This document shows, one piece after another, positions 4,029 through 64,000 of a stretch of 64,000 bases of DNA (position 1 is the stretch's first letter; every line of letters starts with the position of its first letter). Under the pieces are notes generated by a model, which was not told where the DNA came from, did no database searches, and saw nothing but the letters and a program-made list of their open reading frames with translations. The translations under genes were made by a program, and so were the position numbers. Source of the stretch: Sphyrna mokarran (taxonomy: Eukaryota); assembly GCA_024679065.1 (NCBI GenBank), contig JAGIQG010000020.1, positions 8,990,001 to 9,054,000 of the forward strand. Direction: 5' to 3'.

Positions 4029-7000
4029 CCAAATGAAGACAAAATTCAAGCTGTCCAACTACGATATTTGGATGATCAACACTCAACTTGCTGCAAATTC
4101 GTCGGTCAGAATTTTTGGAAGAAGTGCTAAACTGAAATAGGATAAAGGAGCTGAGAGGGGAAATACAGGCTAACGCCTCAGCGGAACCTCAAAACCCCGG
4201 CGTCATACTCTGTGCTGGAACCATGTAATTAAATGATATATTGTAAAGGAACCCATTAAGAAATACACAGCCTGGGATTATCACACAGTGAGAGGAGCAA
4301 TGGCGATAATTTCACTTGTGCATGTTCTCAATTCAAATCTTTTAAATCGAAGGATATATTGCTTGGCAGAGTTTTTTTTACATCCAATTGTGTTAAATAT
4401 GTACAAATTTATTTTATAGGACACATTTCCCAAAAAACCAAACATTCGTCGTTTTATCTGTGGCTGTTTCTACCAGTAATTGTATGCGTTACTCTGCTTG
4501 TGGCTATTTTCCGCTGGAAAACGAAACGTGAGTATTATACGTTCATTGGCAACGTTAGGTGTGTGATATACAACTTTCATTATAAATATCAAATAATCTA
4601 ATCAATTAATGTTATGGCGTCGTTGTTCTTGGTCATAAAATAATACCGAATCACGGAGAGATGTAGCTGGAATGTATTGATGGAGACTAAAATTTATCGA
4701 GATTTATAGTTGCAGCGTAGCTTTTATAACATGCATCAGTGAAATTCCACAAATCCTAACTTAATTTTTAAAGCTCTGCTTTGAGCTAATTCATCGAAAA
4801 GAATTAGCCAATGGAGTATATCCAGGATTTAATTCGCAATCCATGGTCATATCTACTTAAGCAATAGTGACATTCTCTTGCTTACAAAAGCGCATCAGCT
4901 ATCGTGTATCACAGGATAATTATTAGCTATATCCGAATTACTATGTCTACCTGTAACTCTCATCTCTGTCCTCAGTAGATTTTTTTTTGTCCTTTTTAAC
5001 TTTTTTTTTCCTGAGAGTTTGTTCGGTTGCTCTGCGTTTTAAATAGTCCTTCGTGTCTTCTACTTCTCGGCTCGTTGTCGCTTACATTTCCAGTATACAT
5101 GTGTCTCGGCAGTTTAAAATCTAGACTTTGACCCAATTTCAATTCCTAAATGAAAATAAATAGAGCTGTCTAAAACTTTGCATCCTGAGACTGGATGTTT
5201 CAAAATGAAGATGGGGGCCCACGGTGTCACACTGTGGGCTCACAGTAATAGAGACCCATTGCTTGTTCACACGGTTTATCTGTATCCGCGTGTGTTTCTT
5301 CTGGGGGTTCCGGTTTCCCTCCCACAGTCCAGGGATATGCTGGTTAGGTGGATTGGCCACCCTAAATTGCCCCTCAGTGTCAGGGGGACTAGTTAGGTAA
5401 TGGGGATAGGGCGGGATTGTGGTCGGTGCAGGACTCAATGGGCCGAATGGCCTTCTTCTGCACTGTAGATATTTAAGTTAGAAATAGTTTTGGAGTCTAA
5501 CGGTATCTAGAGATATGAGAGGAATCAGAGCATTGAATTTGATGATCGGCCATGATCAAAATAAATGGCGGAGCAGGTCATTCGAAGGTCGAACGGCGTG
5601 CTCCTGCTTCTATTTTCTATGTTGAGCCAAGTTGTCTATCTGTCCAACCCGACACAGCAATAAGCTCATGGTTAGAATAGGTCGTTCAATTTGTCCCCTC
5701 ATTAACTGGAAAATATTTGCGCTCAAGCACTTTTCTATTTCAAGGATTGTAATCAAATGACCTTTTGTGGAACATTTAAACGTTTACCACGTTTCCAACT
5801 GTGTTATTTTAATACGCATGTTAAAATGGAGCCTGGTTACTCCTGGAAATCTAGTCTTATTTAGTGATAGTGGGTATATCCCGATGCTGCGCCGGCCTGG
5901 TTCCATGGTTTCACGGTCGTGGTAAAATTAGACTATCGTTTATTCTATTTTTGTTCCAATTTAGCTTACATTTATTTACACCAAATTCCAAATCATTGCT
6001 TTGGGCCATCTGTTCTAATGATTTACGACTGCAAGGATTCTCATTTCTTCTTATGCACAAGTTGTACATTAATATTGCAGCGTACAGCTGGACTGGATTA
6101 GGTTTTTCGGCGTTATATGTGATTCAAAGAACAACGCTGCTATTACTATCCTGTGTATGGTCGGCCCTGTTACCTGTAATATTATAGGTATTTTGTCTTA
6201 TCCTGATCCTGTAGATAAGCGTGTATGGCATACATGAGTTTGTGGACCAAACAGATATACATTGCCAGCATAATAGTCCAAATAACAGCATAAGGGCACA
6301 AATACATTCAATCGCTTTCTTATAAACGTTGAAAATATTGTCTCTTAACGCCTTGTAAATCTCATTGATCACTACTATAATTATCTTTCCATGAGTTAGT
6401 ATTTAACTGTTATGCACTCATTCCACTCGTTTACAATTGAGTAAAAATAACCTTAATTCAGGTCTCAGAGTAATGTTGCTCCATGTTTTGTGTCGTTTTT
6501 GGACAAAAATATTTGCGTTTCTAGTTTATAAAAAGATTCTGTTGAAATAACACTTTTCACTTGTTATTTCAAGTGAAACTGAGACACATTCTCAGTTTCA
6601 GAGCGATGCAATGCAACAAATTCTGTTTTTTTTTTCTCGCTGATTTTAATTAAGTTACAGTTTTGGCACAACAGGAATCTTTGGCATGTTGTCATTTTCC
6701 GTTGTTTTCTCATTCCAGGAAAGCAATTAGTTGAATACAACGCCCCGTCTGCCGATACCGCCCCAGAGGTACTGTACCTGTAAAAAGCAGTTGTATCATG
6801 TCCTACACCTGGGGCATTAGTCTGACGGGGAAGTAAAACGCATGGGAATGTTTATGTTAAGATTTAACCGTAAATCACAGATCTTTTGTTCCGTTGTTCG
6901 GTAGTTCACTTTCTCGTTTTGCTTTGAAATGCGACATTATTTAATGAAAGCTCGGATCAAATCCATAATTTTTGTGACTTGGGGTTTATCACCTGATGAG

Positions 7001-9413
7001 GATCGAAACAGAAGTTCCTAAGAACGAGCAAAATAAATTGCAAGATGAGCTAAAACAGTAAATAGAGGGAGACAACCCCCACAAGGAGGAAAGCAATAAT
7101 TTTCATTTATGCCTGAACTTCAGAATTCATGAGCGCTTCGTGGACAGTGCGTTGAAGATTGAAAATTGTGTCGGTATAATGTCATTCTAACTCAGATAGC
7201 CAATGTCCCCAGGAAATATCCGATTTTAAAAAGGGTGAAAATAGGAGGAGTTGAGTTCTGCACCGGGGATTTTATTTTCGCGGAAGTTGTAACGATTCCT
7301 CGGGCCCAAGTCCCTGATGTGACAAAGGACGTAAACAGGCGTTTAGGGAGGATTTCAACAGGTGGACTAGGAAGGGTGAAAGATGACCTTGTGGACGGGA
7401 TATAGGCACCTGAGACGATGCAAGTGGAGAATTTGACACTGTAATGTGGGTAAAACAGGAAGAGAAAATAAAATGAGAGAAAATGAGGGATAAGTCAGCA
7501 AATGGGATCCAAGAGGCTTTGGCCTCGTGGATCCAGAACTGGCTTGCCGGCAGAAGGCAGAGAGTGGTTGTGGATGGGTCTTGTTCTGCATGGAGGTCGG
7601 TAACCAGTGGAGTGCCCCAGGGATCTGTTCTGGGACCCCTGCTGTTTGTCATTTTCATAAATGACCTGGATGAGGAAGTGGAGGGATGGGTTAGTAAGTT
7701 CGCTGACGATACAAAGGTCGGTGATGTTGTGGATGGTCTGGAGGGATGCCAAAAGTTGCAGCGGGACATAGACAGGATGCAAGACTGGGCAGAGAAGTGG
7801 CAGATGGACTTCAACGCGGATAAATGTGTAGTGGTCCATTTTGGCAGGAATAATGGGATGAAGGAGTACAATACAAGGGGTAGGAGTCTTAGCTGTGTTG
7901 TAGAGCAGAAGGATCTCGGGGTCTGGGTCCATAGGACTCTTAAATCGCAGGCGGAGGAAGTGGTCAAGAAGGCGTATGGTGTACTGGCCTTCATTAATCG
8001 AGGAATAGAGTTTAGGAGTCAGGAGGTAATGATGCAGCCTTATAAGACTCTTGTCAGACCCCACTTGGAGTATTGTGCACAGTTCTGGTTGCCTCACTAT
8101 AGGAAGGATGTAGAGGCTATTGAAAGAGTGCAGAGGAGATTTACAAGGATGCTGCCTGGATTGGGAGGCAGGTCTTATGAAGATAGGTTGAGGGAGCTGG
8201 GACTCTTCTCACTGGAGAGACGTAGGTTGAGAGGCGACCTGATAGAGGTTTATAAAATGTTGAGAGGAATAGATAGGGTGGACTCTCAGAGACTATTTCC
8301 CCGAGCTGAAATGGTCACTACGAGAGGACACAGATTTAAGGTGCAGGGAAGCAAATACAAAGGAGATGTCAGGGGTAGGTTTTTCACTCAGAGGGTGGTG
8401 AGTGAATGGAACCGACTGCCGTCGGAGGTTGTTGAGGCAAACTCACTGGGGTCTTTTAAGAGACTTCTGGATGAGTATATGGAAAAGAATAGGATAGGGG
8501 GTTATAGATAGGTCTGTGGATTGGTAGATGTGATCGGCGCAACTCGTGGGCCGAAGGGCCTGTTTGTGCTGTATTGTTCTATGTTTCAAAACGGTAGAGC
8601 CTCGAGGCGTATACTTATCTCAATCGTTAATCATTTACTAAAGTTAACTTCACGCTATTTTAATTAGCACCTTTTTTTGTCATTCGATTTTGTAAAATAA
8701 TATTACCAACTTAACATTGTTTTATCTTTGGCGGTAGTACCAGACTGGTCGCCAGTAAATGTCTATCGCACTAATCGTTAGCGCCTTTATTGCTGATTCT
8801 TTCCAGGACACTTCAAGAGCGGATCGAACAATATATGCTGTCATTGCTTCTGCAAGAATGAAAGAAACCTCGCCCAGTTTAGAGATAGTTTATTCTGATC
8901 CGCTGGTGGAAAGAAACGCGCCCAATAGGTCAACAGCTAAGGTGCGTTGGTTTAAGCAATGAACATAGATTTTGAATTAAGTAGCGTATCCTGCCAGGTA
9001 TCTGGTTATCCGGCGCTTAATGGAGATAATAACTTCATGCAACAAGCAATTAAAATTAACGAAGCACTTATTTGGCGAGTTACACGCAAAGAATGTTTCA
9101 AAAGTCAATGAATACATGTGAACCTACTTACCGCTATTTTGTGGTCCATTTGAAGTCACGCCTACGAGGAATTTGTTCTGCCTCGTGCAGACTAAAGACG
9201 ATTTAAAAAGTAAATAAAAGCTTGCTAAATTCTCCATATATTAAATATATGGACCATTAATGCATTGTTCTACGTTTACAGGCGGACTGTTTAGCCGTGG
9301 ATATCTGCAAAGCAGATACTGAGACAGAAGGTGAACATGAGGAGCCAACAGTTTACTCCCGGCTGCATTTTCAGGAGAAGGAAGCTCCGTTTCTCAGCCC
9401 ATGCTTACAGTAA
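1784..9413 (+). CDS. Single Ig V-set type I transmembrane receptor with ITSM/ITIM-like tail (VJ-type domain; CD28/PD-1/NKp30/NITR-like architecture, orthology unresolved). Exons 1784-2198, 4420-4527, 6719-6768, 8807-8941, 9282-9413; 279 aa
   Basis: All introns are GT-AG with matching phases (1,1,0,0), giving an 840-nt open frame ending in TAA at 9411-9413. V domain has LTC (1922), INW, DGGVYYC (Cys 2126) and a J-like GSGSRLIF. TM is FYLWLFLPVIVCVTLLVAIF followed by RWKTKRK. Tail contains TIYAVI, IVYSDP and TVYSRL. The start codon is uncertain (see findings). Confidence 0.85.
3877..4287 (+). pseudogene. Probable decayed second Ig-domain exon (pseudoexon) of the Ig receptor
   Basis: Strong acceptor ttctattttcag|3877 and phase-1 donor A|GTGAGA at 4288. 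Fragments read ELTC...(15 aa)...SLHFY, NPGVILCAG and CKGTH*EIH. Contains stops, frameshifts and a poly-C expansion. Confidence 0.45.
3994..4027. repeat. Poly-C tract
   Basis: About 34 consecutive C. Confidence 0.9.
4420..4527 (+). CDS. Ig receptor exon: stalk + transmembrane helix
   Basis: ttttatag|GA acceptor, GHISQKTKHSSFYLWLFLPVIVCVTLLVAIFRWKTK, C|GTGAGT donor. Confidence 0.88.
5215..5470 (+). mobile_element. V-SINE (HE1-like)
   Basis: V core and GGCCGAATGGCCT tail. Confidence 0.75.
6719..6768 (+). CDS. Ig receptor small cytoplasmic exon (RKQLVEYNAPSADTAPE)
   Basis: ttttctcattccag acceptor, GAG|GTACTG donor; bridges phase 1 to phase 0 as the model requires. Confidence 0.75.
7490..8587 (+). 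mobile_element. 5'-truncated CR1 LINE (RT C-terminal half intact) in an intron of the Ig receptor
   Basis: ORF 7483-8511 with [28 protein letters not shown]; CR1 3' tail GGGCCGAAGGGCCTGT...TGTTCTATG. Confidence 0.93.
8807..8941 (+). CDS. Ig receptor cytoplasmic exon with ITSM TIYAVI and ITIM-like IVYSDP
   Basis: ttctttccag acceptor, AAG|GTGCGT donor, 45 open codons. Confidence 0.85.
9282..9413 (+). CDS. Ig receptor terminal coding exon with TVYSRL motif
   Basis: gtttacag acceptor; ADCLAVDICKADTETEGEHEEPTVYSRLHFQEKEAPFLSPCLQ*. Confidence 0.8.
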   Translation, partial: ADCLAVDICKADTETEGEHEEPTVYSRLHFQEKEAPFLSPCLQ

Positions 9414-11975: not shown

Positions 11976-12224
11976 TTTTGGGACATGTTTATAATTGTAT
12001 AACTTGAGAGGCTAAGTTTCAAGTTATTGAAGAGTAAGATGCTGACTTGCTGTAGACTGGGGACACATCATTATCTGGCATACTTGTCTACAGAAGACAA
12101 ATAGCTTTGGAATTTGCCATAGTAATGATGGTAACAATGTCAGTGTTTATCATCACTATTCTTCAGAACAAGACAGTAACTTTTACAGTCCATGTATCCG
12201 CATTAAACATGGAAATTGCTATCA

Positions 12225-12600
12225 GAGAGAGCCAAGCATGGGTTAAAGAGAACTGTATTGTCTCCAGCCAGGGCAGTTTAGTGAGATTTTGTAAGCTCAG
12301 GCAAGTCATGTAGGTTACAGATAGTGTGACATTTAACATGTGCTTGGCCCTCCCTCCACTCACATTGTCTGTACCTTTAAGCCTGGATTACATGTAAAGA
12401 CTCACATTCTAACCATTACTTGTAAATTAAGTTTGTGTCTTTATATGTCCTGTTTGTGAACACAAGTCGTCGTTAACCTGATGAAGGTGCTTAAGATTCT
12501 GAAAGCTAGTGCTGCCAAATAAACTTGTTGGACTTTAACCTGGTGTTGTGAGACTTCTTACTGTGCTTGCCCCAATCCAATGCTGGCATCTCCACATCTC
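12225..12600 (+). mobile_element. Penelope-like element 3' end with internal inversion and degenerate hammerhead core
   Basis: 12230-12332 on - reads MSHYL* (end of a GIY-YIG-type ORF). The plus part has CTGATGA 12478 ... GAAAGCTA 12501 and the terminal repeat ending GGCATCTCCACATC. Confidence 0.65.
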
Positions 12601-14064: not shown

Positions 14065-15440
14065 TTGTGAGGGAGAGAGACAGTGTGAGGGTGAAAGAGT
14101 GTGAGGGAGAGAGAATCTGAAGGAGAAAGCGTGAGAGAGTCAGAATGAAGGGGATTGTGAGCGTGAGAAAGGAAGTGTGTGGGGGAGAAAGTGTGTGAGG
14201 GAGAATGATTAGATTAGATTAGATTAGAGCAACACAGCACGGGAAACAGGCCCTTCGGCCCAACAAGCCCGCGCCGCCGTCATAACTATGTAGTAACAAT
14301 TCCATTATCCTATTCTAATTTTAAGTTATTCCTAATATGGAAGAGTCTCAATGTAGGGACAATTTGTTTCCCAATCAGCCTAAGAGCGAATTTTTTGGGA
14401 TGTGGGAGGAAACCGGAGCGCCCGGAGAAAACCCACGCAACCACGGGGAGAACGCGCAAACTCCCGCAGACACCGGCCCAATTCCAAGTGTCTGCACAGC
14501 TACAGCGATAGTCACTGAGCTGTCATGGTGCCCTTCAGATGGTCCAGATAAAGCACTCATTTACGACATGAAGCACCAGGCAACCCATGAATCAACATCC
14601 AACAGCTGTCCTCGCACAACCTGCCGAATGCATGCTCCTTGTTGGTCAAGTATGGACCGAATTACCTGTGGGAAAAAAAGCCATAGTTAAACAGTCCTAC
14701 TATATCCCTCTATCTGCATAATGAGTGTGAGGAAGAGACAGTGTGTGGTGTGAGTGTGAGGGAGAGAAAATGTGAGGGAGAGTGTGAGGAAGAGAGAGTG
14801 TGAGGGACAAAGTGTATAAGAGGTGGGCGAAAGTGAGTGAGGGTGTGAGGGACAGAGTGTGTAAAGGAGAGAGAGCATGGAGTGTGAGTGTGAGGGAGAG
14901 ACAATGTGAGGGATAGTGTGAGGAAGGGAGAGTGTAAGGGAGAGAGTGTGTAAGGAGTGGGAGACAGTGAGTGAGGGTGTGAGGGAAAGAAAGTGTGAGG
15001 GAGAGAGTGTGTTAAGGGTGTGAGGAAGAGAGTGAGAGGAAGAGAGAGTGTGAGGAAGAGAGAGTGTGAAGAGTGGGAGAGTGTGAGGGAGAGTGTGTAT
15101 GAACGATGGGAGAGTGTGGGGGAGAGAGAATGTGTGGGGTTGTGTGTGAAGAAGTGAGAGTATGAAGGAGAGAATGTGTGAGGGGTGTGTGTGTGAGGGG
15201 CAGAGAATGAGAGTGAGAGAGAGTGTGAGGGAAAGAGTGTGAGGAAGAGAGAGTGTGAAGGAGAGAATGTGTGAGGGGTGGCAGAGTGTGAGGGAGAGAT
15301 AGTGTGAGGGGTGTGAGTGTGAGGGACAGAGAATGAGAGGGAGGGACAGAGAGTGTGAGGGAGTTAAAAATTGATGAGGGCAGGGTGTGTGTGGTTTAGA
15401 AATTGTGAGAGGGAGGAGAGAGAGAGTGTGTGTAGTTGGG
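14065..15440. repeat. (GA/GT)-rich imperfect simple repeat (GTGTGAGGGAGAGA-like), interrupted by a CR1 3' end
   Basis: Low-complexity purine-rich tandem repeat seen directly. Confidence 0.9.
14206..14718 (-). mobile_element. CR1 3' end with extended 3'UTR, copy 2, (TCTAA)n tail
   Basis: MQIEGYSRTV* at 14687, shared UTR module, GATTA repeats at about 14207-14226. Confidence 0.85.
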
Positions 15441-16856: not shown

Positions 16857-18256
16857 GGATTGGCACATGAGAGGGTAGGAGGGCATATTTGCCGCCTGAG
16901 GGAGAATACATTCCTCCTCTTCCTCTCGACTTCTGCACGAGAATCTGTAACGCTGTATTTTAGCCCCCTCTCCCACAGTCACCCCTGTCTGCTAATAGAG
17001 TGGAGGTGTCTGCTTCTCAAACATTGTGCTTTACTCAACATTTCGGTGCAAAACCCGTGGATGTGTATTTAATACCGGCAGGCAAATTCAAATCATGGTA
17101 ATCAACAGTTAGGATCAAATCTGGAACACAAATTTTCAAACGGGTAATCACCATTACTACGTCTACTAAACCCCTATTTTTATCTTCAGACAAAATAACC
17201 GCCCTTGCCCATATATAACTAACTGTAGTTATTAAGTCAGGATTTCTAGCAGTAATACACAGCTATTGCTTAGCTAGCCAAAGGCAGAGCCCGAAACCCT
17301 ACCAGAAAAAGTGAAGCCAAACCCAGTTTTGACGCGGCCCCAACTCCGACGCAGCACCTCCAAAGTTTTCGATATTAAAATACTTCCCGTCGCAATCACT
17401 ACCCCCTCTCCGCTTTCTCTCGTTTTGACCCTGTTTCCTCCCGCCAAAGTTAACACGATTCGCCATCGTTGTAACTTTCTGTCCCATCTTATTGGCACGC
17501 ATGGGACGAGGACAACGTGTGCAATACAAAAATAAAATCGGTGAAAAGAGGAAGGAAAAGGATTGAAGTATATATATATATATATGCACATCACACACAC
17601 TATGCGTGCAGACAGTAGCAACACGTCTGGGTGGAACACAGACATATATGAAACAAATACATTTGCCCACGCTGTCTGTCTCATCGCACCTACAATTGGT
17701 TTCTCCGTCTGCAGAGTAATGACAATTCTGAATACTGTTATGACTAACATTTTATGTGGAAAGGGGAAGTTTTAAACATTATTTATATCTTTGCGCGTGT
17801 TTATAAATTGGGGCCACACAGATCTGTATAACACATGCAATCCACAATTTTAACACGGATACCTCACACAAGTGATAATTAAGTCTTTACTTCACAATTA
17901 ACAACATGAGTCTCCTGATTTTTTGTAATAAGAAGTCTCGCAACGCCAGGTTAAAATCCAACAGATTTATTTGGAAGCAAACGCCACTAAGCTTTTCACA
18001 GTATATTGTCGGCATCTCCACGTCCTGATTTTCGTTGGATTGGCACGAGAGGGTAGGAGGGAATATTTGCCCCCTGAGGGGGAATACATTCCTCCTCCTC
18101 CTCTCGACTTCTGCATGAGAACCTGTAACGCTGTATTTCAGCTCCGTCTCCCACCGTCCCACAGTCGCCCTGCTCTCTGCTAATCGAGTGGAGGTGTCTG
18201 CAAACAGCCCACACCCTGCTTCTCAAACATTGTGCCTTACTCAGCATTTCGGTGCA
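16857..18256 (+). repeat. Local direct duplication of about 200 bp (16857-17052 and 18037-18256)
   Basis: Visible alignment GGATTGGCAC..GAGAGGGTAGGAGG..ATATTTGCC.CCTGAGGG.GAATACATTCCTCCTC...CATTTCGGTGCAA. Confidence 0.9.
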
Positions 18257-20221: not shown

Positions 20222-20822
20222 TAAGAAATACTTAGATGGGCACATGAACAGAATGGGAATGGAGGGGTATAGAAAACTGATTTAAAATAGGGATCATGAG
20301 CCTTCGGAGTCCCTGGGAAGTGTGTAAATAGATGATGATATTGATGTACTTGTTTTTACCCTACAGATGCTTTGGTCCACCTTGTTGTCTAACGAGGGGC
20401 ATACACGTGATGGGTCGTGAGAGGGCTGCTCTTAGATTTTTTTTTCGAGAGTATCATAGTGCTTCACGTCATTAGTGCGTGCTTGACCTGGACCATTTGA
20501 TGGGCAACACGACAGCTCAGTGACTATCGCTGTGCTGTGCAGATACATGGATTTGGGCCTGTGTCTGTGGGAGTTTGCGCATTCTCCCCGTTCTTGCGTG
20601 GGTTTTCTCCGGGTGCTCCGGTTTCCTCCCACATCCCAAAGATGTGCTCTTAGGCTAATTGGCAAAACAAATTCTCCCTAAATTGTCTCAAATTTGGTTT
20701 TTAATCCATAGATCTACAAACATGGACAGGGATCACAGGTAGAGGTGGGAACATTGGGGTGGCGGCGCGGGCTCGTTGGTACGAAGGGCCTGTTTCGCAT
20801 GCTGTTTTGTTCTTTGTTCTAA
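20222..20822 (+). mobile_element. CR1 3' end with extended 3'UTR, copy 3
   Basis: KKYLDGHMNRMGMEGYRKLI* then shared UTR module; nearly identical to the copy at 25083-25680. Confidence 0.88.
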
Positions 20823-25082: not shown

Positions 25083-26575
25083 TCAAAGATCAAAGAACAA
25101 AACAGCATGGGAAACAGGCCCTTCAGCCCAATGAGCCCGCGCCACCACCCCGATGTTCCCACCTCTATCCGTGATCCCTGTTCATGTTTATAGATCTATG
25201 GATCAAAAACCAAATTTGAGACAATTTAGGGAGAATTTATTTTGCCAATTAGCCTAAGACACATCTTTGGGATGTGGGAGGAAACTGGAGTGCCCGGAGA
25301 AAACCCATGCAAGCACGGGGAGAATGCACAAACTCCCACAGACACAGGCCCAAATCCATGTATCTGCACAGCACAGCGATGGTCACTGAGTTGTTGTGTT
25401 GCCCATCAAATGGTCCGGGTCAAGCGTACACTAACGATGTGAAGCACTAGGATACTCTCGAAAAAGATCCAAGAGCAGTCCTCTCACGACCCATCGCGTG
25501 TATGCCCCTCGTTAGACAACAAGATGGACCAAAGCACCTGTAGGATAAAAACAAGTACATCAATATCATCATCTATTTACACACTTCCCAGGGACTCCCA
25601 AGGCTCATGATCCCTATTTTAAATCAGTTTTCTATACCCCTCCATTCCCATTCTGTTCATGTGCCCATCTAAGTATTTCTTAAATAACTCCAGAGTGCCT
25701 GCCTCCACCACTTTACTTGGCAGCGCATTCCATACCTCCATCACCCTCTGTGTGAAAAAACTCCCTCTAGCATCCAAATTATACCTTACCCCCCTCACCC
25801 TAAGCCCGTGACCCCTCGTGCTATTCAAGTCCATTCTAGGAAAAAGCTTAACCCTGTTTACTCTATCTATACCCCTCATAATCTTGTACACCTCTATTAG
25901 ATCTCTTCTAAGTCTACGTCTTTCTAAGGAAAGCAGTCCCAATTTGCCTAACCTCTCCTCGTAACTCAGACCTTCCATACCAGGCAGCATCCTGGTAAAC
26001 CTCCTCTGCACTCTCTCCAGAGTCTCGACGTCCTTCCGGTAGTAAGGCGACCAGAACTGGACACAGTATTCCAAATGAGGTCTAACCAACATTTTATACA
26101 ACTGCAACATTAAAGGTCACCTCTTGGACTCTATACCCCTTTCTATAAAGGCTAACATACTATATGCTTTCTTCACAACCTTCTCCACTTGCTCTGCCAC
26201 CTTCAGAGACTTGTTCACCTGAACCCCCAGGTCCCTCTGCATTTCTATACTCTTAATAGGTCTACCCTTTATCATATACCTCCCCCCTACATTCTTTCTC
26301 CCGAAATGCATCACCTCACATTTACCAGGATTGAATTCCATCTGCCCAAGCTACCAGTCTATCTATGTCCTGCTGCATCACCTGACAACGCTCTTCACTA
26401 TCCGCAAGTCCAGCCATCTTTGTATCATCTGCAAACATGCTGATCACTCCACTTACTCCCTCTTCCAAATCATTTATACATATTACAAATAGAAGAGGTC
26501 CCAGTACTGAGCCCTGCGGCACACCGCTAGTGACCGACCTCCAGCTAGAAAAACACCCTTTCACTATTACTATCT
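25083..26575 (-). mobile_element. CR1 LINE (RT 3' half with frameshifts) with extended 3'UTR, copy 4
   Basis: ORFs 26322-26564, 26117-26341, 25619-26110; UTR 25618-25083. Confidence 0.92.
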
Positions 26576-27587
26576 GTCAATTTCAAATATCAATTTCAAA
26601 TGTAATATGGAATACAAATAAGTTATGATCACTTTTTCCAAACGATCTTTTACTTTAAGTTTACTAGTGAATTTTGCCTTATTGCAAAATACTAGACCTA
26701 AAATAGATTTATACCTCAGCTCTGAAGGAAACTTGAAACATTAACTCTGTTTCTTTCTCCAAAGATGCTGCCAGACCTGCTGGGTTTTTCCAGCAGTTTC
26801 TGTTTTTATTTCAGATTTCCAGCATCCAGAGTAATTTGCTTTCTATTTAGCTTTATTCCACAACATATTGCTCCAGGAAACACTCATGAAACCATTCTAC
26901 AAACTAACTCATCTTCCAAAATAACTTTACTAATTTAACATTTCCACTTGATATGAACACCAATATTCCCTTGAGATCATAGTAGCAGGAGTAGGCCATT
27001 CTGCCCCACCTTTCAATAACATTTTGGCTGATCTGATTGTGACCTTAACATCAATTTCCTGCCTGTGCTCCCTAACCTTAGATTCTGTAATAGATCAAAA
27101 TTCTAGTTCACTGCCTTGAACCTACTCAATGACCCAGCCTCCCTGGTCTCTGGGGAAGGATGTTCCAGAGATTAACATTATGCTGGGAGAAGACATTTCT
27201 CCATCTTAAATTTAATTTTAAATTATGCCTCCTAGTTTTGTGTTACCTTAAGAGGAAAAACATCCCCTCGGTATCTACCACATCAAATTGTCTCAGAATC
27301 TTTTATATTTTAGTAGGATCACCCCTCATTCTTTTAAACTTCAATGAGTACAGGCCAACTTGATTAAACTTCCCTCGTAAGAGAAGGCTTTCATTTCAGG
27401 AATTAGCCTACTGGTTAAGTATCTTTTATTTGCAAATCCGACAACTGAACTATAAAAGCCAGGCACGCTTCAGACATCATCAAGAGGCTGACGACTTTAT
27501 TACTAAAGTAATAAACTAAAACTATTAGATATTTATAAATAAATATAAAGATATTTATTGATAATGAGCAGTGAGCCCACACTGCAC

Positions 27588-29861: not shown

Positions 29862-31130
29862 TTTGTGGTTTTGTGAAGGGTAGGTCGTGCCTTACTAACC
29901 TTATTGAGTTTTTTGAAAAAGTGACCAAAGAGGTGGATGGGGGTAAGGCAGTTGATGTGGTATATATGGACTTTAGTAAGGCGTTCGATAAGGTGGCCCA
30001 TGGAAGCTTCTGCAGAAAATGCAGATGTATGGGATTGAGGGTGATTTAGCTAATTGGATTAGGAATTGGCTAGCAGATAGAAGACAGAGGGTGGTGGTTG
30101 ATGGGAGATATTCATCGTGGAGTTCAGTTACAAGTGGTGTACCTCAGGGGTCTGTTTTGGGGCCCCTGCTGTTTGTAATTTTTATAAATGATCTGGATGA
30201 GGGTATTGAAGGATGGATTAGTAAATTTGCAGATGACACTAAAGTCGGTGGAGTGGTAGATAGTGAAGAGGGGTGTTATAGTTTGCAGAGAGACTTGGAC
30301 AAGTTGCAGAGCTGGGCCGAGAGGTGGCAAATGGAGTTTAATGTGGAAAAGTGTGAGGTAATGCACTTTGGCAGGAATAATAAATGTGTAGAGTATAGGG
30401 CTAATGGTAGGATTCTTAATAGTGTTGATGAACAGAGGGATCTTGGTGTATATGTGCATAGATCCCTGAAAGTAGGCAGTCAAGTCGATAAGGGTGTTAA
30501 GAAGGCATACGGAGTCTTAGCTTTTATTGGTAGGGGGATTGAATTTCGGAGCCGCAACGTCATGTTGCAACTGTACAAAACTCTAGTGCGGCCGCACTTG
30601 GAGTATTGTGTGCAGTTCTGGTCCCCACATTATAAGAAAGATGTGGAGGCATTGGAGAGGGTACAGAGGAGGTTTACCAGGATGTCGCCTGGTATGGAGG
30701 GCAGGTCTTATGAAGAGAGGCTGAGGGATTTGAGGTTGTTTTCGTTAGAAAGGAGGCGGCTAAGAGGAGACCTTATCGAAACATATAAGATGATTAGAGG
30801 TTTAGATAGGGTGGACAGTGATAGCCTTTTTCCTAGGATGGAGAAAGCTAGCACGAGGGGACACAGCTTTAAATTAAGGGGTGATAGTTATAGGACGGAT
30901 ATCAGAGGTAGGTTCTTTACCCAAAGGGTGGTTAGGGAGTGGAATGCCCTGCCTGCGGCAGTTGTAGATGCGCCAAGTTTGGTGGCGTTTAAGAGGTTAG
31001 TTAATAAGTTTATGGAAGAGAAGGGAATGGTTTAGTTTGGAGGGTCATTGCTTTTTTTTTCATAATTGGTCGGCGCAACATCGAAGGCCGAAGGGCCTGT
31101 TCTGTGCTGTAATGTTCTATGTTCTATGTT
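29862..31130 (+). mobile_element. 5'-truncated young CR1 LINE
   Basis: Uninterrupted 338-aa RT ORF 30019-31035; tail (TGTTCTA)n at about 31113-31130. Confidence 0.93.
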
Positions 31131-33890: not shown

Positions 33891-34329
33891 AACTTGCAGA
33901 AACTCTTTCCGTCTGCCTTAAGACCTGTGAACGCCCATTCTGGGTTACCCGAATTCCTATAGCTTCCTCCAGCACTTTTAACATCTTTTGACTCAAGCAA
34001 TTTTGCCTGACTGCTGGAAGTATTATTGTACAAGATACCGTTAATGCTTTCAATTCCCTGTTCAGTTCATGCATTCTTCTTTAGTAAGCTTCCTTTTCTA
34101 CCCTTCTCTTTTCCCAATTTTTAGAGGTCTAACCGTGTTCTCAGCAATTCTATTTATTTTTGTAACGCTGCCTTACATTTGCAACAAAGTTTTCCGAACC
34201 ACACCGTAACACTATCATCTCATATTTAAGGGAATCTCTATTTGTAAGTAGCTAGATATTTCTTTTATCTCTAAAAGGAATAAAATCTTTCAATCCTCAA
34301 GTCTTAAAGTGGCCGACAATGTGAGTGGA

Positions 34330-34672
34330 CGGAGCACTGAGCACAGGTTAAAGAGATGTGTATTGTCTCTAGACAGCACAGTGAGGTTTTGCAAACCCAG
34401 GCAAGTCATGGGGCTTACAGATAGTGTGACATGAATCCAAGACCAAAGGCTTGAATAGCAGGTTAGGTGTAAAGATTTGCTTTCTAACCAATAATCCGTA
34501 AACAGTCTGTGCTGCTTTATATGCTGTTTGAGACCAGAACACCTCATTCACCCGACAAAGAGGACACCTCAAAATCTTGAGAGTTTACTATCAAATAAAT
34601 TGGTCGGACTTAAACCTGTTGCCAGACTTCTGTGTTTACCTCAGTCCAATGTCGGCATCTCTACATCATGAC
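34330..34672 (+). mobile_element. Penelope-like element 3' end with inversion (degenerate)
   Basis: Minus strand LGFMSHYL*; plus part ends GGCATCTCTACATCATG; homologous to 12225-12600. Confidence 0.6.
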
Positions 34673-34869
34673 ATGTGGAGTACGCAGTTTGGACTAAGTG
34701 TAATGGCTTCATTGAAAAGTAATTTCTGTGTTCGAGCCACGTGATTAGTTTCTGGTGAGACAGTTGGCTGGATGACAAGAGAATCTTCCACAAGCAAATG
34801 GAGAATTGTGGAGAAGGCATGAGTCCTTTGTTTGGTAGCAATAATCCAAGAGACCAACAATCAAAGTAG

Positions 34870-37299: not shown

Positions 37300-43262
<5,963 letters not shown>

Positions 43263-54048: not shown

Positions 54049-57000
54049 CTGGAAGTAAAACAGAAAATTACATTTCAAAATATCTTATTATAATAAAACT
54101 GCCATCAATACATGCAGATCATACACTCAGTATGATATTGTGAATTACAGCAGCAATATTCTTGAATTATTTTGTTTTCAATGTGTGCTAATATAGTGAG
54201 TTAATTAGACCATTAGATTATAATTTGCAAGCAACATTTCATTAAAAAGTTTTCCAATTAGACATTGTAGAAAAACACTTTACCTCCACCCACTACTACC
54301 ACCTATTCTCATTCCCACTATGGTTATATAATAAATTATTCCACAACATTTTTTGAGTAAAATTTTTAGGAAACAGAATTTTTTTCACAATATTGCTTAA
54401 GATTACAAACGGTATACTGATACAGAGGAAATTAACTGAATACGATAACATACATCACTTTTTAGGCAAACTCTGCTCACAAGTATTAAAGTGCCAACAG
54501 ATAAAAATGAGTCATTTTTGCACAAGTATGTATCTGGATTTGAAAAATTCAATATAACCATTACAGAAATACAACCACAGTTAAAAATGCTCAAAGTTTA
54601 GACTGAGCCCAGGCTCAAAAGAAAACTGGGAATTTAGGAACAGAAATTGTCCAATATGTTCCCTCTGAAGTTTTTTTAAAATTTAAGTTTCCTTATTAAT
54701 GTGACAAGTAGACATACATTAACATTGCGCCCATTCAGAGTCATTGAGGGACTATTTAGCATGGCCAATGTATCTAATCAGCAACCTGTGCAATTGGATA
54801 AGCTGTTTACAGTTCTCTCACTGACCCCTGTTATTTCAGTTTCCATATACTAGTTTTTCAGACATTTCACCTCATTAAAATGCCTATATAAATGCAAGGT
54901 CATATAGTCTAAGAAGTATCTGAAAGGAATAGTAGTGAAGATGTGGAGAGCTTTAGAGAGGAAATTCCAGAGGATATAAATTAGGAAACTGAACACACGG
55001 CTGAATGAGTTTACAGAGATAGAATAGGACAAGGAGAATTATAATTGCTCACTGGATGTACAAATGCAGACACAATGGGCCCAATGACCTCTTTCTGCAC
55101 AGTAACACTTCTATCAGTTTGAGGGCAGGTAGGGATTTGAAAACAGGAAAGAGAATATTAAAATTAGCTCCTGTATTATAGAAAATCTCAATGAAGGTCA
55201 ACAAATATATGGGGAACATGATTTGATGACAGTTAGGATATGGATAGTGGGGTTTTGGATGAATTTGTCTATTGAGAGCGCAAGATAGAAGATCAGCACT
55301 TGAATAGTTGAGTTTAGAGATTACAAAACCAGCAACAGTTGAGCTAAGGCAGGGATTGAGCCATGCAATGTTACAGCCTATGTTAAGAACAACTACAGAG
55401 GAAACATTTATCAGTGAGAAGTTGTGAAGGTTTGGCAATTCATTGTGGGTAGAATACTATGTATTACTCCGATCAAGAAACAATATTGAGAGTAACCAAG
55501 GTTGAAGAATAAAGTTAGTGGAGGATATAGTGTAGTTTGGAATGCTATGGAGGCAGCTGGGATGACGAAATAAAAAGATCAGATTGTTTTTGTGGGTTGT
55601 CAAAGACAGATTGTGCCTGGTTGAGTTTTTTGAAGATGTGATTAAACACATTGACGAAGAAAGAGCGGTAGATGTGGCATATATAGATTTCAGAAAGACA
55701 TTCGATAAGGTCTCCCATATAAGGTTTATTGAGAAAATGAGGGGGCATGGGATCCAAGAGGGCATTGCTTTGTGCATCCAGAACTGGCTTGCCCGCAGAA
55801 GGCAAAGAGTGGTTATAGATGGGTCTTTTTCTGCATAGAGGTCGGTCACCAGTGGAGTGTCCCAGGGATCTGTTCTGGGACCGTGGCTGTTCGTGAATTT
55901 TTCATAAATGACCTAGATGAGGAAGTGGAGGGATGGGTGATAAGTTGCCGATGACATGAAGGTTGGAGGTGTTGTGGGTATTTTGGAGAGGTGTCGTGGA
56001 TATTTTGGAGAGGTGTCAGAAGTCGCAGCAAGGCATAGATAGGATGCAAGACTGGGCGGAGAAGTGGCAGATGGACTTCAACCTGGGTAAGTGTGTGGTA
56101 GTTCATTTTGGCAGGTCAAATGGGATGAAGGAATATAATATTAAGGGTAAGACTTTTAGCAGTGTGGAAGATCAGAAGGATCTTGGGGTCCAAGTTCATA
56201 GGACTCTCAAATCGGCTTCGCAGGTAAAGGATGTGATTAAGAAAGCGTATGGTGCACTGGCCTTCATTAATCGAGGAACTGAGTTTAGGAGTCGGGAGAT
56301 AATGCTGCAGCTGTATAAGATCCTGGTCAAACCCCACTTGGAGTACTATGCTCAGTCTGGTCACCTCATTAAAGGAAGAATGTAGAAGCCATTGAAAGGG
56401 TGCAGAGGAGATTTACAGGGACATTGCCTGGATTGGGTGGCATGCCTTATGAGGATAGGTTGAGAGAGCTCAATCTTTTCTCTTTGGAGAGATGAAGGAT
56501 GAGAGGTGACCTGATAGAAGTGTACAAGATGTTGAGAGGTATTGTTCAGATGGATTCTCAAAGGCTTTTTCCCACAGCTGAAATGGCTGCAATAAGAGGA
56601 CACAGGTTTAGGGTGTTGGGGAGTAAGTACAGAGGAGGTGCCAGGGGTAAGTTTTTCACTCAGAGGGTGATGAATGAGTGGAATCGGCTGCCATTGGTGG
56701 TGGTGGAAGCAAACTAGCTGGGGTCTTTTAAAAGACTTCTGGATGAGTACATAGGATTGAGGGTTATAGATAGGCCTGGTAGGTAGGGATATGATCGGTG
56801 CAACTTGTGGGCCGAAGAGCCTGTTTGTGCTGTAGTGTTCTATGTTTTAAGTTGTTAGTTATTGGTGGAATTAAGAGTACATCCTGTCAACTAAGAGATA
56901 TTTTAAACAATTTATTCTTCCTTACTTTTATTTATTAGTGCCATAAGTAGGCCTACATTAACATCGTAATGAAGTTATTTTTGAACAGGATCTAGGTGAG

Positions 57001-60000: not shown

Positions 60001-62436
60001 TTTCACATCTGCTGGCAGTATAAAGGTTAAATGTGATTAGTAACCCTATCCCTATTTTCAATTTGGTGAAATATAGCCTGCTATGTGGCCTGGCCAAACA
60101 CGGCATTGAAATAATGTAAGTTTACTGATTTTAGAATACATGGTATGTTAGCAATTACATTGTACAATACTAACACACAGAATCTGTAATGACCAAACTA
60201 CATGAGACAAAGTATACTAGAGAGAGCATTGTACCATCTGGTCCAAAGAAGGCTCCACACTGGGCACAGAAGAAGTGCTCAGGATGCCAAGTTTTATCCA
60301 GTGCTGTCACTACTTTCTGTAATGTAGAAAACAGAGGAGGCATTAGTATGGCAAAGCAAAACGCATCCACCTTATTCCTTATACTATTTAGCCAAACACA
60401 AGCGAACCAGATAAAGGTCCACTGTACTGCTCTCATTTCTCATAACAAGTAAAACCAAGGCTCCAATATACTGTCACCCTTCTAACAGCTAGGTCTGACA
60501 CTACTTCATGCTACACTCAATGAAATAAATCCATTTGTAAAAGCAAACCAATTTAACTTTGGTACAGTAAAGTCCTGCTATTCGTGACTTGCTCTTTAGT
60601 GAATTCACTTAAACCAGGTAAAAGTCTTTGTAGTCTACATTGCCCACTGCAGACACACATGTTCACTTATCCATGGTTTGAAAAATAATTAACAGAAGCC
60701 AACTTTAGCAAATGCTGGAAAGTAAAACCTAAATGAAGTTCGGAAAGTATGTCCATGACATATTTCTTTTATTAGAAAATATGTGAGTCATCAGCCTTGT
60801 TGCTTCCATCTAATTTCTGATCACAGTTCACTTCCACTCTCAAATGCAATACTATGAGTGTGACAGATATCATAATTTTCTTTTTTTTCAACTATTTGTC
60901 CAGTAAATTTATCTCTAAATTAATGAAAAACATAGCTTTTATTGCCTTTATGAATGTCAAATTTGGCTGCAACCTACCTAATTGACTCTCACTATAGAGT
61001 ATGTTCGCTGTTCACCATTTTGCTATTTGTAAGGTTTTGCGGGAATTTAACTTTTGTGAACAGCAGGACTTCACTATGCTATTCCCAGAAAATACAGGAA
61101 TGGCTGTTAGCTCCAAGTGCACTGTACTTATTCATATTTGTCACTTGCAGATGAAGTACCCAGTATCCTCACTTTTCAACCCCCTCACAAGAGTAACCAT
61201 TTCATTTTAAATAAATTTGAGATACTTACATCCAGAATGGGTCCATTGCAGTAGTAACAGCGGGGAGAGAATAGGTTGTGATAGTCTTTCTCACAGTATG
61301 GCTGCCCATCTCGTTCAAAGAAATTCCGAGAACCAATCTCCTCTTGGCAATGGATACAAACGAAGTGCTCTGGGTGCCAGGTACGACCCATTGCAGTGAC
61401 AACCTGACAGAAAAGAAACATTTTTAAATTGCTTCATAAATGTAGAAGGCAGCAAATAATTCTACCTGCTCAATCACATCTAGGTAATATCCTTTTATAA
61501 TTATATAATAAGCAAATTCATTAATGAAATTTGCACAACTCTTGACATACTTATGTGGTCTTTATTTGTTCAGATGCTGCATCTCTGCAGAGGATAATAA
61601 TGCATGTTTTTGGAGTGCAATATAGCCTCCTCTGGTGAAAGGAAAACATCAATATGTTGAGGAAGCGTGCTGACACAGTATGTAGCATTGCTACCTTACA
61701 GTGCCAGGGACCAGGGCTCAATTCTGGCCTCAGGTCACTGTCTGCTGGAGTTTGCACATTGCCCCAATATCTGCGTAGGTTTCCTTTCACAGTCCAAAGT
61801 TATGTAGGTTAGGTTGATTGGTCATGCTAAATTGACCCTGGTATCAGAAGATTATCAGGGTAAATATGTGCAGTTATGGGAATAGCGCCTGGGTGGGATT
61901 ATAGTTAGCACAGACTTGATGGGCCAAATGGCCTCCGTCTGCACTGTTGGAATTTTACAATAATAACTTGATTTATCTCTTTATACATGCTGATTGATTT
62001 GTATATTCCCAGAATCTTGTATTATTATCAAACAGTTGTGTTAAACAGGCTGTCATGGATACACACAGCAGTAGTATTTCATTCCCTTGCCTCATTGTGT
62101 TTCACTGCAGAGATCAGATACAAATTTGAGCAGCATGCTAATAAATGCAGCAAGAATGGACTCAAATTGCAAGCTTACTCAGTAAGCTTCTCAGAGATTG
62201 CTTCTATTGACTTTTGCAAACTGTTGAGACACTTCATATACTGAGAAAGTTCTTCTCACCTGTCCAGCAATAGGCTTCTTGCATGCAGCACACACTCCTT
62301 TTGCAACAGTCGCAACCCCCAGCTTATTCAGTCCAACATGAAGTTCATCTAGCATGTTATCCAGCTGGCTTCCAGCTTTTTGAGGACCTGCAACAGCGGA
62401 GGAGCCACCATGCTTTCCTTTAGACCCTGACATCAT
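53782..62436 (-). CDS. PXN: Paxillin, 3' part (LD5 + LIM1-4). Exons 62436-62260, 61403-61230, 60316-60235, 59111-58963, 54048-53782; 5' exons lie beyond the window
   Basis: [24 protein letters not shown] / [16 protein letters not shown]... / ...[18 protein letters not shown]; GT-AG junctions in frame; adjacent to RPLP0 as in other vertebrates. Confidence 0.96.
55585..56850 (+). mobile_element. CR1 LINE fragment in the last PXN intron (same subfamily as 7490-8587)
   Basis: Frameshifted RT ORFs 55584-56717 with CR1 tail. Confidence 0.9.
57288..58102 (+). mobile_element. Rex1/Babar LINE 3' fragment
   Basis: [17 protein letters not shown]...NFYRCT, CITAWY...[10 protein letters not shown]; tail AATAAATCAAATCAAA. 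Confidence 0.85.
58650..58900 (+). mobile_element. Vingi/Ingi-like LINE 3' end remnant
   Basis: [28 protein letters not shown]...SACSC...SHITEDC (CCHC knuckle)...EAIAW. Confidence 0.6.
58963..59111 (-). CDS. PXN: PXN exon (LIM2-LIM3)
   Basis: [50 protein letters not shown]. Confidence 0.96.
60235..60316 (-). CDS. PXN: PXN exon (LIM2)
   Basis: [27 protein letters not shown]. Confidence 0.95.
61230..61403 (-). CDS. PXN: PXN exon (LIM1-LIM2)
   Basis: [58 protein letters not shown]. Confidence 0.96.
61670..61950 (+). mobile_element. V-SINE in PXN intron
   Basis: Head, V core, tail. Confidence 0.75.
62260..62436 (-). CDS. PXN: PXN exon (LD5 + start of LIM1)
   Basis: [59 protein letters not shown]; cacag acceptor, GTGAG donor. 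Confidence 0.93.
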
Positions 62437-63015
62437 CTGTGAACAGAAGGAGGGAGGAAAAAAATTATGTTAAATACTCACTGGGTTTCAGCACTGCTAT
62501 CCTGTTGAATTATAGATGATTTTGAGGTGTGTTAATTCACTGATGTAGTTTTAATCATTTTTGGTCCAACTTTAGATACAAGTTATTCTCCAAAAGGCTG
62601 CCTAGGTCACAAACTATGCTTAATGTAACTTTTCTTTTGGTGATATCTTCCAGATAGAACCTACCTAATTCACACAGGAGTAATCTTTAGTTCTTTTGAC
62701 AAGAATAGCACTCACACTTTTATGACATACATAGACTTGCAAATATCTGTCTGTTAATTTATTACTAGACACTATGGGTGGGATTCCTGCTGTGGCATAC
62801 ACCACGAGGAGCAGGCTCACTTAATCATGGTAGTGGCCAGCAGCAAACAAAAAGCTTCCCCAATTAAGGTGAACTGGCTAATGGCAGGTTCCTGGTCAGT
62901 GGTGGTGGAATGACTATTAGGTGAGAGGCACTGTGTCCCAACTGGTCTTGCTTCCAACGCATGAGCACACGCATGCACACCCCCTTCCCTCCAGCAGCTG
63001 TCATTGTTCCCACTG

Positions 63016-63269
63016 TAGTCATGATGTAAAGATGCCGGCGTTGGATTGGGGTGGTAAGAACTCAGTAAGAATTTAGCAACACCAATTATTAGTCCAACCG
63101 ATTTATTTGATAGTAAATCCGCGAGCTTTCAACACTCTTGTATCTTCCTCAGGCAAGTGCAGTGTTCACTGCACTTGCCTGAGGAAGACACAAGAGTGTT
63201 GAAAGCTCGCGGATTTACTATCAAATAAATCGGTTGGACTAATAATTGGTGTTGCTAAATTCTTACTGA
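63016..63269. mobile_element. Penelope-like inverted terminal-repeat insertion with 13-bp TSD
   Basis: Arms 63062-63164 and 63167-63269 (1 mismatch); ATTGTTCCCACTG at 63003-63015 and 63270-63282. Confidence 0.85.
63174..63213 (+). ncRNA. Minimal type I hammerhead ribozyme motif (mirror copy on - at about 63118-63157)
   Basis: TTGC-CTGAGGA-A-GACAC(AAGA)GTGTT-GAAA-GC-TC-GCGG: CUGANGA, stem II, GAAA, palindromic AGCT stem III, UC cleavage site. Confidence 0.75.
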
Positions 63270-64000
63270 ATTGTTCCCACTGGCAGTGATAGCAATGAGG
63301 CACTGCTGGCCTCCTGATCGGTCAGCAGCTGTGTGTGTAGGACTTCATCTGCTGAGGATTCAAATTCATATAAGGTCTAACAGTAGCCATTCAAGAGCTC
63401 GAAGAGCACTTAGTAACATCTGTCTTTCTAGGGGTTCCACTTAGTTCACTAAGAGGTGGGTAAGACTCCTAAATTCAGCTCTATATTTGACATGCCAAAA
63501 TTGTTAAAAGATTTATTTCTGTGGTTTACATACACAAATAGGAATGATGTCTTTATTGCAAGATTTATGCAATACCTCCACACATCACAAAATTATGCAG
63601 CAGGGATATTTAACATTGTTAACTGCCTTTGTAGGTGCATGAAGCATGCAGTCAGATGCTAAATAGAGGATTGGTGGACCATACTGTTTTGATCAATAAA
63701 CACTATCAATAAGTACTGACTGCTAATTAAAGCCTTCTTGAGTTAACATGAATCAAAGTAAAATTACTTGACTGGTGGATCTGAATTTTACTGACCAACC
63801 CGCAGCTTTAATTGATTAGCGATGGGCCTGTTGGTGCATAGGGTGAGGAAGGACAATTTGATAAGTGTTTTGTATTACATTCTTACTTTACATGAAACAA
63901 AGTCTACACGTTTTAGATAACAGAATTTTTCACTGTTAAAAGAAATCAATTAACATGATTAAAATTAAATTATAAAAGAGTTACAAATTAAAAATTCAGA

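Follow-up and report, generated by a model that had tools for sequence, protein, structure and literature searches.

The closest described systems to the locus reported here are the Penelope-like elements (PLEs), in whose insertions an inverted, 5'-truncated copy adjoins the 5' end and a tail of 30-40 bp is present at one end only (Craig et al., PMC8557442). The inverted pLTRs, likewise accompanied by a tail, lie between target-site duplications (TSDs) of 8-10 bp, head-to-head being the commonest arrangement and the palindromes at the junctions being read as self-priming (Arkhipova et al., PMC3846280). Frangieh et al. (PMC11167929) show that the tail spans the distance from one RT start site to the other and that cutting and extension affect both target strands; only the first steps of insertion are reconstituted in that work, and the formation of tandem and inverted structures is called undefined (PMC8557442). 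The minimal hammerhead ribozymes (min-HHRs) have a consensus marked by an extra nucleotide after A9, a palindromic 15.2-16.2 and a short stem I (Cervera and de la Pena 2014, PMC4209133), and those of PLEs cleave weakly as dimers (PMC4209133), such dimers being the subject of Lunse et al. 2016 (via the review PMC6765202). The hammerhead of the Anolis PLE PAc needs the PLE protein for cleavage, and insertion in vitro can do without it (Frangieh et al., PMC11167929).

The window analysed here, that is, the whole of a 64,000-nt stretch of DNA from Sphyrna mokarran (GCA_024679065.1, contig JAGIQG010000020.1, positions 8,990,001-9,054,000 of the forward strand; coordinates below are positions within it), contains an insertion in a paxillin (PXN) intron that we read, with a probability of roughly 0.88, as an ORF-less, dead-on-arrival copy of an endonuclease-bearing Penelope-like retrotransposon. 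The insertion and the nearest exon of its host gene comprise the following features.

62260-62436, minus strand: internal paxillin exon reaching the start of LIM1, 93-98% identical to named elasmobranch paxillins, with AG/GT boundaries
63003-63015, unstranded: left copy of the TSD, 13 bp, lying no more than 2-3 nt from the 3' end common to it and the 34.6-kb copy (the match reaches 63018)
63016-63061, minus strand: one-sided 46-nt tail, the 3' end of the element, outside the palindrome and homologous to the 3' ends at 12.5, 34.6, 38.2 and 39.7 kb
63062-63164, minus strand: tail-bearing arm, a 5'-truncated pLTR segment whose element sense is the PXN pre-mRNA sense
63119-63156, minus strand: minimal type I hammerhead with the same sense as PXN (C3 at 63152, C17 at 63123, predicted scissile bond after 63123; stem II with a U.G pair)
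63162-63169, minus strand: palindrome centre, GTG-AA-CAC on this strand, an 8-mer that the 12.5-kb copy also has, at 12456, upstream of its hammerhead core
63167-63269, plus strand: tail-less inverted arm, with element sense on plus, antisense to PXN
63175-63212, plus strand: minimal type I hammerhead on the strand opposite to PXN, with cleavage predicted after C63208
63270-63282, unstranded: right copy of the TSD, 13 bp, its first 11 nt equal to the element's own continuation at 8/11 positions

The arms, of 103 bp apiece, are separated by a 2-nt centre (63165-63166) and, followed outward, meet a single mismatch (A/C at 63142/63189) before the next at 63061/63270, as the initial annotation had described; the palindrome DNA fold has z = -31.5, and none of 200 shuffles was equally stable. 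That annotation had also placed a 13-bp direct repeat around a 208-bp palindrome. The repeat, ATTGTTCCCACTG, is indeed exact at both positions, which would happen by chance with a probability of about 1.4e-8 for a fixed site or 6e-6 if 10 nt of slack is allowed at both ends, but the span that it encloses is 254 bp, of which 46 nt (63016-63061) have no mirror and lie outside the palindrome. This tail, overlooked when the palindrome alone was taken for the insertion, belongs to the insertion; in the older copies it measures about 41 nt, as they lack a 5-nt subfamily-specific insertion of the PXN-intron copy. A MITE or other non-autonomous DNA transposon was rejected, since terminal inverted repeats do not abut the TSD at both ends, the 46-nt unpaired tail separating the left TSD from its arm. 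A hexamer, AATAAA, occurs once per arm (63102-63107, minus; 63224-63229, plus) and is kept in 4/5 older copies. A stop-free frame of 103 aa (62817-63128, minus) was rejected as a gene because it begins within the element and continues into the intron, and a scan for bacterial promoters and terminators, irrelevant for a vertebrate, stayed at chance level.

With its tail included, the insertion agrees closely with the Penelope/Poseidon and Neptune inverted pLTR insertions (Adineta vaga Pen2a/Pen3a, D. virilis Penelope; PMC3846280, PMC2377424, PMC8557442): an inverted, 5'-truncated copy is joined head-to-head at the 5' end through a palindromic junction and, as in EN+ PLE insertions, there are a tail at one end only, a TSD, 5' truncation and a hammerhead that sits in the pLTR a short way upstream of the tail. 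At 46 nt and 13 bp, tail and TSD somewhat exceed the 30-40 nt and 8-10 bp given in the cited papers, and the arms are nearly perfect with a 2-nt centre, unlike those insertions. Unlike EN+ PLEs, the PXN-intron copy keeps only the last 149 nt, with no ORF and no tandem pLTR; having 12 nt upstream of the core, it is probably without a promoter. No head-to-tail (direct pLTR) copy or tandem array is present at the locus, and since partial head-to-tail tandems, although not required of truncated inserts, are needed for expression, their absence marks this copy as inactive. The non-LTR retrozymes (bioRxiv 10.64898/2026.07.22.740005) resemble it in being non-coding, PLE-related and equipped with a type I hammerhead, and are reported from one chondrichthyan genome; retrozymes, however, form head-to-tail tandem repeats whose neighbours dimerise in cis, whereas the PXN-intron copy is a head-to-head solo with a TSD, and that class was rejected for want of a tandem array at the locus.

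The assignment to PLEs rests on anatomy, and the putative autonomous partner would lie elsewhere: a six-frame motif scan of the window and translation upstream of each copy gave nothing credible as a PLE RT/GIY-YIG ORF, and two scans of genome contigs, from a collection without eukaryotic DNA, returned 0 loci with the family's motifs. No description of this shark family was found in the titles and abstract openings of the PLE papers that literature searches listed, and the family may already be catalogued in Repbase or Dfam. The earlier proposal of a non-autonomous, PLE-derived insertion is upheld by arms, single tail, TSD and min-HHR, which together match the published PLE layout.

Its exons identify the host gene as elasmobranch paxillin, encoded by the minus strand. 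The best 45 matches of the exon at 62260-62436, the N-terminal part of which we take to be LD5, are shark and ray paxillins at 93-98% identity, as against 69-81% for non-elasmobranch matches, and in 40 of the 45 the exon motif was located over 100 residues in from the N-terminus. Downstream PXN exons map to 61.4, 60.3, 59.1 and 54.0 kb (tblastn, 6 proteins), two other exons have a paxillin of solved structure as best match in a PDB search (the exon nearest the insertion gave nothing informative there), and no separate upstream PXN exon was mapped in the window with the same 6 proteins. As the exon is internal in the proteins and the window holds no exon upstream of it, the insertion is intronic: it lies within a PXN intron, 567 nt from the acceptor, with the 5' end of the intron beyond the window. 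The intronic location given in the initial annotation is therefore confirmed, with the strand corrected to minus. At its 5' end (62430-62436, minus) the exon encodes MMSGSK, as in Mustelus entries, four other shark entries having MMTQSGSK, two residues more. Downstream of PXN, on the same strand, lies the last exon of an acidic ribosomal stalk protein (37300-37430, minus; best match uL10/RPLP0); PXN and RPLP0 are neighbours in other vertebrates.

The initial annotation had missed five older relatives of the PXN-intron insertion in the same window; with the tail, these relatives make its layout the standard one for PLEs and no oddity. A search with nhmmer and the tail-bearing arm returned 6 loci at E<0.001 (the PXN-intron copy and copies at about 12.5, 17.9, 34.6, 38.2 and 39.7 kb), and a common 17-mer pattern matched 6 times in the 64-kb window against 0.01 expected. 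The five older copies are the following.

12224-12599, plus strand: inverted head, longer pLTR, decayed hammerhead and tail (nhmmer, alignment)
17913-18032, minus strand: exact 10-bp TSD and the same layout of tail fragment inside and tail-less end outside, with the centre missing (nhmmer, TSD search)
34289-34673, plus strand: inverted head, decayed hammerhead and tail (nhmmer, alignment)
38194-38298, minus strand: short inverted head (nhmmer)
39706-39820, minus strand: 5'-truncated, without inverted head; possible 13-bp TSD with one mismatch

The family is thus dispersed, with a 3' end nearly common to four older copies and 5' start points that all differ. Upstream of the hammerhead core, two older copies continue for about 250 nt more, and decayed cores lie at 12478 and about 34552. 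Inverted heads are present at 5/6 loci including the PXN-intron copy (4/5 older copies): that at 38.2 kb measures 36 nt, whereas those at 34.6 kb (61 columns, E = 6e-7) and 12.5 kb (20/24) correspond, read backwards, to the upstream part of the pLTR. On the minus strand the latter two translate as ...GLGFMSHYL* and MSHYL*, very short peptides that we take to resemble PLE ORF ends and that are possibly the last codons of the parent ORF. The inverted arms vary in where they end: two reach the tail boundary, one falls short of it by about 10 nt and two end far upstream. At 17.9 kb, the exact 10-bp TSD (null 11/2000) encloses an inverted tail fragment and then a sense arm ending where the PXN-intron tail-less arm ends, so that this copy looks like the same structure after loss of its centre. 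A lenient TSD search, with a null of 179/2000 (9% false rate), found none for the 12.5-, 34.6- and 38.2-kb copies, and with that false rate the TSD at 39.7 kb is not relied on; that copy (39695-39831) lies between 13-bp repeats with one mismatch and may sit within another short repeat. A separate imperfect 61-bp palindrome (79%; 18046-18106) adjoins the 17.9-kb copy and falls outside the family.

The PXN-intron copy is 73-77% identical to the four tail-bearing older copies (59/81, 62/81, 58/75 and 51/66), three of which are 89-94% identical among themselves, a difference that makes it a member of a distinct subfamily. The sequences of stems I and II differ among the three core-keeping copies, which are partly decayed and too few for a covariation test, and stem II still pairs in the PXN intron and at 34.6 kb. 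As one of six family relics in 64 kb, with a layout already described for PLEs, the single locus matters little in itself; its value lies in being a clean, almost undecayed, ORF-less specimen that keeps both junctions.

Long near-perfect palindromes are a known class of artefact. Although PLE inversions trouble assemblies (PMC8557442), an assembly or library fold-back artefact is exceedingly improbable in this case, as it would not yield a TSD, a one-sided tail, an internal mismatch and unique flanks on both sides, and decayed copies in the window have the same layout.

Numbered by the established convention, the hammerhead of the plus strand consists of stem I (63175-78), CUGAGGA (63179-85), an extra A (63186), stem II (63187-91 pairing with 63196-200), GAAA (63201-04), GC, U63207, C63208 and stem I' (63209-12). 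The type I order, CUGANGA ... GAAA ... UH with the core closed by stem I, is accordingly present, with A63186 as the unpaired nucleotide between A9 and 10.1 and A-G-C-U (63204-63207) as the palindromic 15.2-16.2. In this combination of CUGANGA, unpaired nucleotide, stem II, GAAA, palindromic 15.2/16.2 and UH the motif is the same as metazoan PLE min-HHRs and the PAc hammerhead, and it further shares with them a stem I of 3-4 bp and the lack of an intramolecular stem III; dual min-HHRs on opposite strands, 100-700 bp apart, are also reported for Schistosoma (PMC4209133). A descriptor of the published min-HHR consensus matched only the two arm sites in 64 kb and 0/200 dinucleotide-shuffled windows. 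The hammerhead lies 12 nt from the palindrome centre in each arm, and the hammerhead that had been annotated on each strand is real as a motif, although its second copy follows automatically from the palindrome and is not an independent observation.

Several features set this hammerhead apart from the published min-HHRs. The pair at 10.1-11.1 is not G-C but G.U in both arms, a tolerated or decayed variant and a minority state (a G.U closing stem II was counted by eye in 6/44 alignment rows examined in the PMC4209133 supplement); stem I is weak, with 2 Watson-Crick pairs and 2 U.G only; and the ribozyme is predicted to be fully sequestered by its antisense. The G/C at 15.2/16.2 is identical in one row (turtle) of the same 44, again by eye, and the supplement file searched contains no shark row. 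The mismatch at 63142/63189 converts a C-G pair of stem II into U.G and, as had been claimed, leaves the stem pairable. The covariance-model scan proposed earlier reported no hammerhead family: none of the Rfam hammerhead families appears at E<=10 in 62500-64000 or 63165-63240, and none reaches gathering score anywhere in the window, possibly because the motif has no intramolecular stem III. Rfam miRNA and snoRNA matches were rejected as generic hairpin matches under gathering score, and a known miRNA precursor was rejected with them (best 50.8 bits against a gathering score of 90; none at gathering score in the window). As for the cleavage site, the cut expected after C63208 holds for an antisense transcript; because PXN lies on the minus strand, the ribozyme of the pre-mRNA is 63156-63119, and its cut would follow 63123.

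Whether either hammerhead could act in place was approached by folding, with equilibrium nearest-neighbour estimates that leave out tertiary contacts and proteins. The minus-strand hairpin has 102 pairs, the mismatch being read as G.U, at -186 kcal/mol; forcing stem II with a free core costs 50.2 kcal/mol on the minus and 47.2 on the plus strand, and P(stem II) is <= 1e-13 at 7/7 growing-transcript lengths tried. Given the head-to-head geometry, each read-through transcript contains one ribozyme preceded by its exact antisense, and with the antisense first in the RNA the hairpin of about 102 bp is predicted to zip so that the ribozyme does not fold. The proposed masking of the ribozyme by a pre-mRNA hairpin of about 100 bp is thus supported by prediction, and the ribozyme in place is predicted to be an inactive, silent passenger. 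For the motif taken in isolation, a misfold that pairs the core (-9.2 kcal/mol) is preferred to stems I+II (-5.8); the AGCU/AGCU duplex of a trans-dimer is worth only -2.5 kcal/mol, and even with the antisense arm left out the dimer-ready fold has P of about 1e-3 to 1e-4, as G7 and the UC site tend towards a misfold. With its misfold, weak stem I and G.U at 10.1-11.1, the PXN-intron copy may therefore be catalytically poor. Dimer-type cleavage, as suggested for the locus in the initial annotation, does not suit the arrangement found, since two hammerheads on opposite strands form no cis dimer of the tandem-PLE type. A lack of cleavage as a dimer would not count against PLE origin, because the published PLE min-HHRs are weak as dimers (PMC4209133) or protein-dependent (PMC11167929).

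The hairpin itself is likely to be A-to-I edited, to judge by analogy. According to PMC5625713, a palindromic Harbinger repeat of Xenopus tropicalis is heavily A-to-I edited and hyper-editing is extensive in elephant shark brain; like that repeat, the PXN-intron palindrome is a self-folding repeat of about 200 bp that gives dsRNA without a neighbour, although Harbinger is a DNA transposon with terminal symmetry and the symmetry of the PXN-intron insertion ends 46 nt short of one end. The hairpin would be readily available to ADAR as a substrate, in a lineage where hyper-editing is abundant. Dicer processing and cruciform extrusion are plausible, and the latter may be slow given the 45-52% GC of the palindrome centre. 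The fate of the insertion would likely be that of an A-to-I edited hairpin with no effect on the paxillin protein and an eventual collapse of its centre, as at 17.9 and 38.2 kb. Another potential source of dsRNA in the window is an inverted pair of 600-bp repeats (20222-20820 and 25087-25682), 93% identical and about 4.3 kb apart, which represents a young repeat.

A co-opted role in PXN regulation, as a hairpin-gated ribozyme, a source of small RNA or a splicing switch, is very improbable. The insertion does lie 567 nt from an acceptor that named shark isoforms reach from alternative upstream exons, pairing in the pre-mRNA hairpin is complete, with G.U at the mismatch on the minus strand, and an AATAAA stands in PXN sense at 63107. 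Against these points, the element looks young, the family is common enough (6 loci per 64 kb) for intronic insertions to be expected, the Rfam miRNA matches remain far under gathering score, and across the 7 transcript lengths no kinetic window for folding of the ribozyme is predicted. The AATAAA in PXN sense (63102-63107) sits buried inside the hairpin.

On the reading of the PXN-intron insertion as a dead-on-arrival PLE copy, its formation may be sketched as follows. A PLE RT/GIY-YIG protein encoded elsewhere would have cut the target with a 13-nt stagger, and synthesis of a first cDNA, with the plus-strand end at 63015 as primer and the distal (tail) start site on the RNA as its beginning, would have come to a halt about 150 nt on, where a GTG-NN-CAC mini-hairpin lies upstream of the ribozyme. 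If the 8-mer of the centre is template-derived, the plus strand through the tail-bearing arm would be this first cDNA, which would have ended in GTG-TT-CAC and could fold back and prime its own copying. The 8-mer occurs 3 times on both strands of the 64-kb window (12456, 41761 and 63169); its distance upstream of the core is 14 nt at 12.5 kb and 9 nt in the PXN-intron copy, a 5-nt difference in spacing. The junctions suggest that the tail-bearing arm is the first cDNA, folded back at a mini-hairpin of the template; the failure of the 34.6-kb copy to keep the 8-mer and the differing inverted-arm ends of the older copies speak against making too much of this. Alternatively, the second arm could be a second cDNA made from the other nick, one that begins from the proximal RT start site and anneals through the same 3-bp palindrome, a route that would explain the common end point of the 17.9-kb copy and the PXN-intron tail-less arm. 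Either way, joining of the second arm to the target would have taken place at the tail boundary; target and element are alike there at 8/11 positions (P about 0.002, post hoc), and a template jump may have landed at this point. Fold-back and priming from the second nick yield the same product, and one locus does not separate the two routes; comparing such inserts across the genome could tell self-priming by fold-back from priming at both nicks, with no bench work needed.

The same right-junction likeness, together with a 3-bp snap-back centre, would also fit template switching, and the palindrome might on that account have arisen after a plain 149-nt insertion, through fold-back repair or replication template switching. 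Such an origin is a very slim prospect: both arms lie exactly within the TSD, the tail-less end falls where it does in the independent copy at 17.9 kb, inverted heads are present at 5/6 loci, and the layout is the published norm for PLEs.

It is also conceivable, if quite improbable, that what moves is the palindrome as a whole, a MITE-like subfamily of non-autonomous retroposons whose transcript inserts again in hairpin form, so that many copies have one centre and the same ends in common. The PXN-intron copy does represent a separate, younger subfamily (73-77% against 89-94% among the three older copies), and PLE pLTRs act in trans (PMC3846280). Conversely, a second copy of this subfamily was not found in the 64 kb, the centres and arm lengths of the older copies differ as if the inversion were made anew at each insertion, and a hairpin of about 102 bp should be a poor RT template. 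A related and improbable reading has a young shark subfamily moving as a whole self-masking palindrome (a retro-MITE), with only the PLE protein or A-to-I editing able to release its ribozyme. Were it true, thousands of near-perfect copies would record the making of PLE arms and tails, the asymmetric centre showing which arm was the first-strand cDNA and the arm ends distinguishing fold-back from two-nick priming.

To return to the PLE copy in the PXN intron, its arms and TSD differ at 1 of 116 paired sites, which corresponds to 0.43% per copy (95% interval 0.011-2.4%). At the mutation rate given for the epaulette shark, 7e-10 per base per generation (PMC10587355), this amounts to about 6 million generations (0.16-34 million), an age that becomes zero if the mismatch is an RT error and that homogenisation of the arms would hide. 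Retention of CpG is no more than suggestive as an age marker: its observed/expected ratio is 0.78 against 0.34 for the window, but 40/429 tiles are as high and the marker is correspondingly weak. The insertion is hence young relative to the neighbouring copies but not demonstrably recent; "recent", as it had been called, is apt in comparison with the other copies, whereas the absolute age spans 0.16-34 million generations. It is a possible presence/absence marker for shark phylogeny.

Elsewhere in the window, fragments of LINE RT are numerous (Pfam RVT_1; for example, 7477-8511, 29992-31035, 25619-26576 and 55545-56850), with a mutual identity of 65-80%, and are presumably CR1-like. A purine-rich, degenerate 16-bp tandem array of about 40 units occupies 14723-15363. 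Lastly, an Ig V-set exon (1742-2386, plus; Pfam E 1.1e-13) ends with a J-like GSGSRL motif in the same exon and is followed downstream by a frame with a hydrophobic, transmembrane-like stretch (4260-4601, plus); the two are an unrearranged V-J-type immune receptor gene, which we assume to be NKp30/CD8-like.
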